From positions 186,001 through 250,000 of the forward strand of contig JAPETS010000019.1 of NCBI GenBank assembly GCA_026023565.1: 64,000 nt of DNA, written 5' to 3'. The position numbers and the translations under genes were made by a program. The notes under the pieces are model-generated. The model saw only the letters and a program-made list of their open reading frames with translations, did no database searches and was not told the DNA's origin. The stretch comes from Cirrosporium novae-zelandiae. Taxonomy: Eukaryota. Shown here one piece after another: positions 26,762-30,824 of this stretch; within the stretch, counting starts at the first letter, position 1, and every line of letters starts with the position of its first letter.

Positions 26762-27588
26762 GCTCCGCAGTGCTGGAGTGTGAAAATGGTCATATTACTG
26801 GTGTTGTGAGCTGGAGTAATGAGGCGATGGGGTCTGATTCTGGGGGGTTGATCTAATTTGTGTATTTAGTAAAGGGTTGTTTGGGGGATTACACCAAGTT
26901 TCTGCGTTTCTTGAAGATTTCTGAAATTGACATGTATCTTCTTCCATCTGTATTAAATTCATTCTTGGTGGACTTGTGCATCCGAGTCTCAGATGTATTT
27001 TAGATTTAGACTATGCAATAGCTGGTAATGATTGATTAGAAAGTAGTTCTCCTCTTCGTGTCGTGTCTTGATATCGTAAGCTGTCAGGACTGAATTGCTT
27101 TGGTAGAACGCCGCCGAGATACGTTGGGAAGGCCGGGGGGGGGAGGGTTAATCTTTAACCCAAAATGCTCCCAATAAGACTTCTCCTTCAAATAAATATG
27201 GGGTAATCGTATCCAAACAACCTTTTGAATTTCTTTAACAATCTTGCTTGTTCTGTAAGTCGTTGTTACCTATTGCTATAATTACATAATTACATGTATT
27301 TTATAATTCAAAAAAACGAAAACAAAAAACAAAAAACAAAATGCCATCATTCTAAGCTTTTGTCTCAGAAGATTCCCCCGCCCTCTCTCTCTCTCCCTCT
27401 CACTTTCTCTCTTCCAATGTGCATTTATTAATCTTCAATTCCCTTCCTCGTCTCAATTACTTATTGTTCTTTTCCTAATTGATACTCTAGCCTCGATATT
27501 TCTGACTTGAATCACATTCTGTTATACTCTCCGTGTGTTCTTGTCGTCAATAGTTTTATTCGTATTCCAATCCGTCGTCTCTGTCGTC

Positions 27589-29741
27589 ATGGCTGAAGAA
27601 GATAAACAGAATCTCTGGGGAGTGGTGGATATGGGAAGGTACGTTAAAAGATCAGATGGTTAGATTGACATCATCGGTCACCTTTCCTGTTGGTTCTAGC
27701 CTCTCCTTTACTTTGGTCCTTTGTGTGGCATTCGCTTAGATAATTAATTGTTTGAGCTCCACCCTTTCCGGCCAAATTTTCGTCATGATTCATTTATAAT
27801 TCCTTCTCACCGCTTCAATACCCAACAAGCACCTAACAAGGGCATGTGGTTTAGTGGTATAATGTTCCCTTAGCATTAAGCATGGGAGAGGTCCGGCGTT
27901 CGATTCGCCGCTTGTCCATTGTTGAGTCCTTCAATCATTGAAGGTGCCTGGTTATCTTTTTGCTCTTTTGATGATATGTGTGTTCTTGTTGAGGCGAAGA
28001 TAGATGCCTCCATGCACTTCTGTTTTTTTATTTCTTTGCTTCTATGGCAATCTATTTCATTTTTGTGCATTCTGAGCATCGCTAAATCCGAACATGTAGC
28101 AATGGAATCCGCTTCTCGATCTCCGACCTCTCTCCCAAATCAGCTCGAGTAATGCCAACCCTCTTCCAAGAGCGTATTGCCATCTCCCTTTATGATGTCC
28201 AGTATTCAGACAAAGGAGAAAAGCAACCAATACCGGAAGAGGTGATGCTCTCGGTAACAACCGAGATCGCACGGTTCAAATCAATATGTCACGAATTCGG
28301 AATCCCCTCGCCGCGCATCAAGATCCTTGCCACTGAAGCCACCCGCGAAGCCATGAACTCAAACATCTTTCTCGACCAAATCAGCATCCACACCAGCGCG
28401 GAGATCCCTGTGCAAATGCTGCCAAAGTCCGACGAAGGGAAGCTCGGCTCCTTCGGCATCGCAAGCTCCTTCCACAACGCCTCCGGCATCATCATGGACC
28501 TGGGTGGCGGCAGCACACAGATCTCATACCTCCTCCCGGAAGACAACCTGAAAAGTGGCGACGATGCATCTATAAACCGTTACATCAGTCTCCCCTATGG
28601 CGCCGCAGCCCTGAAACTGCGTTTGGCAGAAGCCGAAAAACAAGGCAAGGCCGGCAAAAAGAAACTCCACGATGAGATCAAAGATGCCCTCAAGCAAGCC
28701 TACTCGGACCTCAATGTCCCAGAATCCCTAACTCAACAAGCCGAAACCTCGGGCATGAATTTGTACCTCTCAGGCGGCGGCTTCCGCGCCTGGGGCTACC
28801 TGCTCATGCACACGCATGACATAGCTCCCTATCCAATCCCACACATTAACGGCTTCTCGGTCCCCGCCGCGCGCTTCTACAATACCGAACCTATCAAACC
28901 CTGCGCCACGACGCCTACTTCAATTTTCCGAATCTCAAAGCGTCGCAAGACGCAAATCCCAGCCGTCGCCTTCCTAGTCGAGGTCCTGCAGGACGCCCTA
29001 CCCCCCACAATCAAAACCGTTTACTTCTCTCAGGGCGGCATCCGTGAGGGCTTCCTGTGGTCTCAGCTCCCTCCCGAAATCCGTCAACAACACCCCCTGA
29101 TTGCCAGTACGGCGGGCCTCGGGTTCCAACCCACAGGCACAGCTAACCCCCTCCAAACCTCTCTCCCCCCCGCCCTCCTAACCCCCCACAATCTCACTCT
29201 AACTCAAACCCTCCTCCCCCTCCTACAAACGCATCACTCGATCCCCAAAGATGCCCGCGCCTCCTCGGCGCTCCACTTTCCAATAACCGGCCTCCTAGCC
29301 TCCGTTCACGGTCTCTCCCATATCGACCGCGCCATGCTCGCTCTAGCCCTCAGCGAGCGCTGGGGCGCCGACCTCCCCCCTTGCGACACCACTTTCGAAA
29401 AAAATCTCGAGGAAATCGTTGGTGTCGAGCGTGTTTGGTGTGCGAAATGGCTAGGCAGGGTCGGTGCGCTTTTGGGAAAGGTTTATCCCGCTGGGGTTGT
29501 GGGGATGGGGGGTGGTTCGGGGGAGAGGATCAGGATTAAATGTGAGGAGATGGAGGAGGATAAGGATAAGGAGGGGAAGAAGAAGAAGAAGAATAAGAAG
29601 AGGGGCGGGGTTAGGGTCATAGTGGCTGTTAGGGGTGTGGATGTGCGGGATGAGGTGAGCGATTTGGAGAAGATGGGGAAGTGGGGGAAGGGGGAGGGGG
29701 TTGGGTGGAGGGTTGAGGTTGTGGTTGGGGGGTTGGAGTAG
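27589..29741 (+). CDS. RTG2: Retrograde regulation protein 2 (Ppx/GppA-family ASKHA protein)
   Basis: Exon 1 (27589-27638, MAEEDKQNLWGVVDMGS) joined across intron 27639..28099 rebuilds VDMGSNGIRFSISDL; LATEATREAMN; MDLGGGSTQ; SLPYGAAAL; LSGGGFR; QGGIREG. Confidence 0.93.
27840..27918 (+). tRNA. tRNA-Ala, anticodon AGC, with a 7-nt intron
   Basis: Acceptor stem GGGCATG/CTTGTCC with the G3:U70 alanine identity pair; A box TGGTTTAGTGG; anticodon stem TTCCC/GGGAG with AGC at 27872-27874; intron TTAAGCA 27876-27882; T arm CGGCG-TTCGATT-CGCCG; discriminator A. Mature length 72 nt; T5 run at 27957-27961. Confidence 0.95.
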
Positions 29742-29807
29742 GGGGAGTTGATTCGGTGGTAGTGATTTGGTAGTATAGTAGTTGGTGGGGGTTAGTATGG
29801 TTAGTAT

Positions 29808-29935
29808 GCACACATAACATACATACATCCATACACACACACGTATTGTTAGTTGGTATACATACACACATACATACACACATACATACACACATGCATA
29901 ACCATTACATACCTATATACCTATAGACCTATATA
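29808..29935. repeat. Compound (ACAT)n/(AC)n microsatellite in the RTG2-MAM3 convergent intergenic region
   Basis: Directly visible runs such as acatacatccatacacacacac and catacacacatacatacacacatacatacacac. Confidence 0.85.
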
Positions 29936-30824
29936 CTTCACTTTTAAACCAACAGAAAAACAAGAAGCCGTAGACTAGGAATTTCTTAATTGCCTAGGTA
30001 ATTACACTAACTTGTAAATCTTGTAAGTTGTAACCAAACTAATTAGCGGATACCCCTCATAAAACATTAAACATTTTATTTAACATTTAACATTTAACAT
30101 CTGATAGTGACATCCCCCATCCCATCCGCATCCCATCCCATCCATTCAACCTCCAACCTCCACCTCAAGGGGGACTAATAGTAGTCTAATAGTAATAAAA
30201 TAAATAAAATGGATAGACAAATTGACATATAAGTATATAAGTATATAATACATCTCCCACCCATTTACTCCTCAGCCCCTCAACCCCCCTCTGCCCCTCT
30301 CCCCTAACCCTCTCCCCTAGCCACTTCATAACCATCTACACATTCACATCCCCCCCCCACCACCACCCCCTTCCATCATTCCCCTATCTCTCATTCCCTT
30401 TATTCCTTTCTTCTCTTTTTTAAATGACTCACGAAATAAACAAACAAATCAATAAATAATAATTAATTAATTAATCAGTTAACATCCTCCATGTTCTTCT
30501 CTCCCCCTTTCTCTCATTTTAGAATCGATAAAAAAAGTCGTGGATAGGTGAGTTATAATCAATCAATCGGGTTATGTCATTCATTTTCATTCAATTGAGT
30601 AGTAACCCTTCCTTTTCATATCCCATGTGTGAACGTACAAACGGACGAACTACTTCCTTTTTACTCAATTTCCGTTCCGTTTTCATTTCCATTCCACCTA
30701 TTCCAATACCGAGGAGAGAAAAAAAGAAGAGGAAAAAAAATTGGCAAGGTAAAACAAAACATCAAGCTATGCATGCATGCACTGTACGGTACGGTACGTA
30801 CGTATGGTTATGGCTATGATAATG

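Follow-up and report, generated by a model that had tools for sequence, protein, structure and literature searches.

How does a protein-coding gene accommodate a complete tRNA gene, in the sense orientation, within its first intron, and does the nested gene affect the expression of its host? This question is raised by the RTG2 gene of the fungus Cirrosporium novae-zelandiae (GenBank assembly GCA_026023565.1, contig JAPETS010000019.1), for which we analyzed positions 186,001 to 250,000 of the forward strand. This stretch of 64,000 nt is referred to as the window, and all coordinates are counted from its first nucleotide. The original prediction placed an intact tRNA-Ala(AGC) gene in intron 1 of RTG2 and proposed that the nesting could couple RTG2 output to the activity of RNA polymerase III (Pol III). 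The anatomy is borne out by the analyses described here. As to its consequences, we favor, with a probability of roughly 60%, a tolerated and near-neutral nesting, in which bound Pol III factors would dampen the transcription of RTG2 modestly at most.

With default settings, ARAGORN found no tRNA gene in the window, and a scan of the whole window with Rfam at gathering thresholds yielded no tRNA match. The default tools overlook the gene because of a 7-nt insert in its anticodon loop, a feature that was absent from the earlier description of this tRNA. When introns were allowed, ARAGORN reported one tRNA gene in the whole window, a tRNA-Ala(agc) with the intron notation i(33,7), and a focused Rfam scan matched the tRNA family over the complete model (positions 1–71 of 71) with 44.8 bits, compared to a gathering threshold of 29 (E = 3e-08). 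Alanine identity of a tRNA is specified by a G3:U70 pair together with A73. Both are read from the sequence here (G at 27842, T at 27915, and A73 at 27918), as are U8, A14, G18G19, and the TTCGATT T-loop, and the two internal promoter elements, the A box and the B box, are recognizable (Table 1). In addition, a TATAA motif precedes the tRNA, as in the TATA-dependent tRNA genes that are known in fission yeast and plants, and the T5 run that had been described before is present downstream as a candidate terminator. Complete type 2 Pol III signals, in a member of a dispersed gene family (see below), make independent Pol III transcription the default expectation, and the nested gene is most likely transcribed on its own by Pol III.

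An alternative source of the tRNA would be the host transcript. Intron-encoded small nucleolar RNAs (snoRNAs) are made by excision from introns transcribed by RNA polymerase II (Pol II). In the same way, the tRNA could be cut from the RTG2 pre-mRNA or from the intron lariat by RNase P and RNase Z, with no transcription by Pol III of its own. The sense orientation is compatible with this route, for which the tRNA-like RNA of Arabidopsis GUT15 provides a precedent (PMC6152437), and the idea is raised in an account of the C. elegans genes (PMC4999229). However, with its A and B boxes, upstream TATAA, and T5 run, the gene has retained all that marks an autonomous Pol III unit, and the family to which it belongs is multi-copy and dispersed, with unrelated flanks, all of which makes an origin from the Pol II intron very improbable.

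The host gene is identified as RTG2 (retrograde regulation protein 2, with an ASKHA fold of the Ppx/GppA type) by the product of exon 2, which matches the Pfam domains RTG2_C (PF23566; 4.8e-44) and Ppx-GppA (PF02541; 4.5e-30), both above the cut-off, and for which the nearest solved structures are exopolyphosphatases (3hi0_A; 2e-13). Exon 2 opens with C AAT GGA ATC CGC TTC, such that joining the AG at the end of exon 1 to this C rebuilds the Ser codon, and the protein runs on with NGIRFSISDL. Among the 1,272 relatives listed out of 7,999 scored candidates, the best one (P0001) is a protein of 563 aa (17 + 546) that is annotated as a hypothetical protein of Cirrosporium novae-zelandiae (class Xylobotryomycetes). 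It is 100% identical to the exon 2 product, its N-terminus, MAEEDKQNLWGVVDMGSNGIRF, equals exon 1 plus exon 2 exactly, and the database gene model has the identical 461-nt intron. The exons of this protein, the Pfam domains, and an intron position that is shared with other fungi (see below) agree with the claim that the intron splits the VDMGS|NGIRF motif of RTG2. Of the 26 RTG2 proteins in the alignment, 20 have VDMGS, the residues S17–S23 are invariant in all 26, and the RTG2 open reading frame is intact, with every invariant column of the 26-protein alignment kept.

The N-terminal phosphate-binding motif DMGSNGIRF arises only if the two exons are spliced together. The phosphate-binding loop takes its Asp-Met-Gly from exon 1, a start at the next in-frame ATG (28152) would remove DMGSNGIRF, and no alternative DMG segment was found in any of the three frames of intron 1, all of which are full of stops. 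Because the loop needs exon 1, and the intron offers no substitute, a functional RTG2 requires that Pol II passes through the tRNA gene (tDNA) and that the 461-nt intron is spliced out. The whole tRNA is contained between the predicted splice sites, which are placed on the basis of homology and of the conserved position of the intron. It has the sense orientation, starts about 250 bp from the ATG, and is flanked by two exons, neither of which can be missing if the DMGSNG motif is to be complete. It follows from this anatomy that, as had been stated, Pol II must traverse a Pol III unit and that the pre-mRNA must contain the tRNA sequence. Pol II would thus start upstream of 27589 and run through the tDNA, and the host intron, the splice signals of which are normal, is most likely still removed, which would join exon 1 to exon 2 and restore the nucleotide-binding motif VDMGSNGIRF.

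Table 1. Features of the RTG2 locus and of the tRNA-Ala(AGC) gene nested in its first intron (positions in the window).
Feature	Position	Strand	Remarks
tRNA-Ala(AGC) gene, 79 nt including the 7-nt insert	27840–27918	+	ARAGORN with introns allowed; Rfam RF00005
A box	27847–27857	+	10/11 positions match the consensus
Anticodon AGC	27872–27874	+	Within the 14-nt loop 27870–27883
7-nt tRNA intron at the canonical 37/38 site (predicted)	27876–27882	+	Equivalent placement by ARAGORN, 27872–27878
B box	27897–27907	+	9/11 positions match the consensus
TATAA	27795–27799	+	45 nt 5′ of the tRNA start; candidate TFIIIB/TBP element for Pol III
First T5 run 3′ of the tRNA	27957–27961 (+39 to +43)	+	Candidate Pol III terminator
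Perfect 8-bp inverted repeat, tRNA 3′ trailer	27928–27944	+	Folds as a hairpin of 7 bp with a 3-nt loop
RTG2 exon 1, coding part	27589–27638	+	ATG at 27589; 16 codons, MAEEDKQNLWGVVDMG, then AG of the Ser codon
RTG2 intron 1, spliceosomal, phase 2	27639–28099 (461 nt)	+	Donor GTACGT 27639–27644, branch-like CTAAA 28082–28086, acceptor TAG 28097–28099
RTG2 exon 2	28100–29741	+	546 codons and stop (29739–29741), without a further intron
CT-rich tract 5′ of the RTG2 start codon	27370–27415	+	Likely core promoter or 5′ untranslated region, judged from the sequence

Whether the intron, and the tRNA within it, are general features of RTG2 was addressed by scanning metagenome contigs with the alignment of 26 RTG2 proteins. 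The scan produced 288 pattern matches and 227 confirmed relatives, and the best 80 loci, all of them distant relatives with 39–49% protein identity, were analyzed. An intron is present at exactly the same Ser codon in 44 of the 80 loci, and the codons are contiguous in the other 36. Altogether, 41 of the 44 introns were confirmed as GT...AG introns of phase 2 that rebuild an AGC or AGT Ser codon; of the remaining three, one (L001) has no GT/AG pair at the exact offsets, and two (L072 and L073) were measured at 89 nt. Several of the 44 loci look like repeat samples of one organism, and therefore the 44 are not independent. The orthologous introns are 50–433 nt long (median, 102 nt), and the 461 nt of the window intron is the greatest length seen for RTG2 intron 1, yet lies within a broad length distribution. 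Judged from these loci, the intron position is ancient and widespread, and RTG2 intron 1 frequently exceeds the length of ordinary introns in fungi. In five of the 26 aligned proteins (P0002, P0005, P0007, P0047, and P0051), the residues directly ahead of SNGIRF are unrelated, and a further protein starts at MGS; the N-termini of the five were probably mis-predicted by gene callers that read through the intron. As to the 45–60 nt that the original prediction gave as typical of introns here, a crude splice-signal scan of the window gave nine intron candidates of 49–87 nt and 14 longer, unvalidated ones, and was not used as evidence; the lengths of the corresponding intron in other fungi provide the fairer comparison.

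The distribution of the tRNA is different. With introns allowed, ARAGORN found a tRNA in none of the 44 orthologous introns, and tRNAs were detected in only three of the 80 loci, in each case more than 2 kb downstream. Of the 23 loci in which the intron has at least 100 nt, 16 were scanned with Rfam and likewise gave no tRNA match at E ≤ 0.1; the other seven had been left out as apparent duplicates of the 16, on the basis of equal length and splice motifs. Sequence similarity between the window intron and the 44 orthologous introns did not exceed chance level (best words of 9–13 nt, E of 0.48 or worse), and no second copy of intron 1 exists within the window. Absence of the tRNA from the same intron of RTG2 orthologues is one half of the outcome that the original prediction had named as refuting a functional coupling, and absence is what was found, among orthologues with 39–49% identity. 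Because 0 of 44 orthologous introns contain a tRNA, the nesting is not a conserved feature of RTG2 control, and as far as sampled, it is specific to the lineage. In the explanation that we favor, one copy of a multi-copy, Pol III-type tRNA-Ala(AGC) family came to lie, in sense, within the ancient intron 1 of RTG2. Two further observations were made at the orthologous loci. An orthologous intron of 433 nt (L012:1144–1576) contains neither a tRNA nor any Rfam family, and a sub-threshold match to the thiamine pyrophosphate (TPP) riboswitch (L003:6329–6424; 35.3 bits compared to a gathering threshold of 54.3, E = 0.0021) lies about 1.6 kb downstream of an RTG2 homologue and may represent the riboswitch in an intron of a fungal thiamine gene.

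That the tRNA belongs to a multi-copy family was revealed by the sequencing depth. The contigs of run X1, which has 97% of the sampled words and is the probable source of the assembly, were mapped on 27000–30000, whereas the runs X2 and X3 have only low-complexity or short conserved parts of the stretch. The X1 depth is 347.9 on one flank and 357.6 on the other. Between them, the summed depth climbs from about 348 to 2,868 over 27808–27908, the contigs end at 27865 and resume at 27891, and loose contig ends at 27836, 27840, and 27920 lead into unrelated flanks. Read from these break points, the tRNA-Ala is multi-copy in this genome, and the copies are dispersed and have unrelated flanks. The window comes from a metagenome-assembled genome, and the fact that k-mer contigs of X1 break inside the tRNA may also be taken to indicate an artefact, in which the assembly joined two loci via the repeated tRNA, or in which RTG2 really starts further downstream and makes no use of exon 1. 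However, the depth is equal on either side, the two sides encode halves of one conserved motif that is interrupted at the same position in 44 of 80 loci, and, as outlined above, initiation at 28152 would lose this motif, for which the intron offers no replacement. An artefact of either kind is therefore exceedingly improbable.

The copies also bear on the condition of the nested gene. An ungapped X1 contig of 65 nt (27848–27912) with a depth of 733, about twice the single-copy value, spans the 7-nt insert and differs from the nested copy at 2 of 65 positions. At least some sibling copies thus appear to share the insert, and some appear to be identical to the nested copy over 27836–27866 and 27890–27920, as judged from break points and loose ends rather than from the other loci themselves. 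These results have to be set against the possibility that the nested tRNA gene is inactive or in decay, with no Pol III complex forming on what would be inert intron filler. In favor of decay, cmscan reported two non-standard stem pairs, U6:U67 and U13:U22, the 7-nt insert is unusual, the Rfam score is moderate, the nested copy has the two differences from the depth-733 contig, and its first T5 run is found only at +39, compared to about 10 nt past the tRNA in one sibling copy (loose end 27920). However, the stretches that hold U6, U13, U22, and U67 are those that seem to be identical in siblings, and therefore the mismatches look family-wide and not like decay of the nested copy. Furthermore, the 7-nt insert is common to siblings, and the sequence retains G3:U70, A73, U8, A14, G18G19, and an intact T-loop, A box, and B box. 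Taken together, the data point to a working gene family, in which all copies seen carry the mini-intron, rather than to one broken copy, and we doubt that the nested gene is dead.

The 7-nt insert is itself informative. The anticodon loop of 14 nt consists of the 7-nt loop TTAGCAT repeated almost exactly in tandem, such that a normal, seven-membered loop is regained whichever seven consecutive nucleotides are deleted, be it at the canonical site after position 37 or elsewhere; in the ARAGORN model, the loop without the insert reads TTAGCAT. In the sibling contig, position 27878 is T and not A, which makes the loop duplicate perfect. This suggests slippage, by which 7 nt of the anticodon loop were duplicated, as the origin of this intron at the canonical position. 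The gain of a canonical intron by a eukaryotic tRNA gene is described in a review as hard to imagine (PMC4090602), and a slippage duplication of the loop would be a simple route to such a gain at the level of the DNA. Among the titles listed by a literature search, no discussion of a 7-nt loop duplication as the origin of a tRNA intron turned up. For budding yeast, tRNA introns of 14–60 nt are reported (PMC10275265). A contig of another organism, from run X3, contains the loop up to position 37 (TTAGCA), then an insert that differs from the one here and is longer (about 20 nt), and then a tRNA-Ala-like 3′ half that matches 27883–27918. Genes for tRNA-Ala(AGC) with canonical introns may thus be common in related fungi.

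Would a tRNA gene of this kind leave the transcription of RTG2 unaffected? In the coupling that had been proposed, TFIIIB, TFIIIC, and Pol III on the nested tDNA act on Pol II as a roadblock or local silencer, the tRNA fold of the pre-mRNA is cleaved by RNase P and RNase Z, or both occur, with the prediction that RTG2 output goes down when the tDNA is occupied and up when the Pol III factors leave. The geometry is suitable, since Pol II meets the tDNA in sense orientation, 250 bp past the ATG, and has to cross it before reaching the main exon. In budding yeast, TFIIIB is reported to roadblock Pol II about 65 bp upstream at 132 of 272 tRNA genes, and readthrough is described for none (PMC5052057). 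Moreover, Pol III complexes are reported to alter neighboring Pol II transcripts, which change upon loss of TFIIIC (PMC4228148), an interaction between the host promoter and an intronic tRNA is described for C. elegans (PMC4999229), and tRNA-shaped intronic elements are able to change splicing in human cells (PMC7722341). On the other hand, the tRNA is missing from all orthologous introns sampled, and other eukaryotes appear to tolerate such genes. In Arabidopsis, canonical intron-nested tRNA genes are described as leaving the splicing of their hosts unchanged (PMC6152437). In C. elegans, 264 of 608 tRNA genes are reported to be nested in introns (PMC3342880), which favors tolerated nesting, and 56% of the intronic tRNAs are in sense, indicating that this orientation is not avoided (PMC4999229). 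On balance, a regulatory coupling, which the yeast roadblock renders conceivable, is unlikely. In its most specific form, the nested gene would be a Pol III-dependent valve, in which occupancy during growth stalls Pol II or leads to cutting of the tRNA fold, whereas lower occupancy allows more full-length RTG2 mRNA to be made. If this were true, retrograde (mitochondria-to-nucleus) signaling would be tied to the state of tRNA synthesis in this lineage, and RTG2 would be a natural ascomycete gene that is expressed only by Pol II reading through a sense tDNA, but we regard such a valve as quite improbable.

Tolerated, near-neutral nesting remains the explanation that we prefer, and several points weigh against it. 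Given the yeast roadblock, an active tDNA within a gene of an ascomycete would probably not be wholly neutral. The two-exon gene model is a prediction that is based on homology and on the database entry P0001. A 7-nt tRNA intron is very short, and its splicing is a prediction. With its two odd pairs, the 7-nt intron, and a candidate terminator that sits 39 nt beyond the tRNA 3′ end, the nested copy may be weak or inactive. Finally, all orthologues used for comparison are distant, which bears on the age of the nesting.

Additional elements in and around the intron were evaluated. The 8-bp inverted repeat in the tRNA 3′ trailer, which had been described before, is present and unique in the window. 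It is weakly beyond chance, as 100 of 2,000 dinucleotide shuffles of the intron give a perfect 8-bp repeat with a loop of up to 10 nt, and the window contains 14 such repeats. The minimum free energy fold of 27830–27965 is not a cloverleaf (z = −0.87), a result that is usual for single tRNA sequences and uninformative. A box C/D snoRNA in the 3′ part of the intron (27954–28075), with TGATGA at about 27970 and CTGA at about 28072, about 100 nt apart, was set aside as noise; its only support is a snoU13 match of 12.9 bits (E = 5.1), and a terminal stem is lacking. Also rejected was a target-site duplication formed by CTTCAAT at 27812 and 27929, a 7-mer without statistical weight, and the unit implied by these repeats would exclude both the TATAA and the T-run. 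A perfect CTAAC branch-site consensus (27832–27836; chance expectation about 0.45 per 461 nt) is found directly 5′ of the tRNA, and the first usable AG after it is located at 27853–27854, inside the tRNA. This combination could act as a decoy 3′ splice site that would give rise to an unproductive isoform. Outside of the intron, the CT-rich tract upstream of the RTG2 start codon attracts a pile-up of low-complexity contigs from other organisms. Simple repeats (ACAT/ACAC-type and TTAACA-type) and C-rich tracts follow the RTG2 stop codon (29770–29940 and 30050–30130), and the X1 contigs are cut at 29544–29610 and 29852–29901, around the 3′ end of RTG2.

On present evidence, the tRNA nested in RTG2 is an annotation-level curiosity. 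It is notable for its location in the 5′ part of a conserved regulator, in the sense orientation, and in a phylum in which tDNAs are known as barriers to Pol II. Judged from the yeast data, Pol II is almost completely barred by a tRNA gene that is occupied, and the RTG2 locus is therefore a natural test of how leaky this barrier is, as well as of the competition between RNase P/RNase Z and the spliceosome for one pre-mRNA. In open-access full text, no report of a fungal tRNA gene nested in a nuclear intron was found, the matches being to mitochondrial genomes or to other kingdoms; fungal cases may go unremarked in genome annotations.

Intron-nested tRNA genes are already known in nematodes and plants, with parallels in humans, and the RTG2 case joins them. 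Among ascomycetes, a counterpart is provided by the tDNA/TFIIIB roadblocks of S. cerevisiae (PMC5052057; PMC4228148), in which an ascomycete tDNA likewise lies in the path of Pol II and from which a collision about 65 bp upstream of the nested tRNA would be predicted. However, the yeast cases are reported to be intergenic and to end non-coding or read-through transcripts, whereas at RTG2, Pol II would have to pass for a functional mRNA to be made. The human nimtRNAs (PMC7722341) are also intronic, cloverleaf-forming sequences that could influence splicing, but they are described as look-alikes derived from nuclear mitochondrial DNA segments (numts) that serve as splicing enhancers, in contrast to the nuclear-type tRNA-Ala with G3:U70 found here. 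In Arabidopsis, sense tRNAs or tRNA-like sequences reside within introns both in the canonical nested genes and in GUT15. The GUT15 element is characterized in that report as not transcribable by Pol III and as inhibiting splicing (PMC6152437). A lack of an autonomous Pol III promoter and terminator, which marks the GUT15 type, is not seen in RTG2, where the A box, B box, TATAA, and T5 are present, and because its Pol III signals are complete, the RTG2-nested tRNA resembles the canonical nested Arabidopsis genes and not GUT15. The intron-nested tRNA genes of C. elegans are similar in that complete tRNAs with Pol III signals of their own lie inside spliceosomal introns and belong to multi-copy families, and their nestings are reported to turn over quickly between species (PMC3342880; PMC4999229). 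The worm differs in scale, with 264 of 608 genes nested, large introns, and many conserved nestings, whereas the fungal RTG2 gene is compact and its tRNA an isolated case, placed in a first intron 250 bp after the start and found in none of the sampled orthologues.

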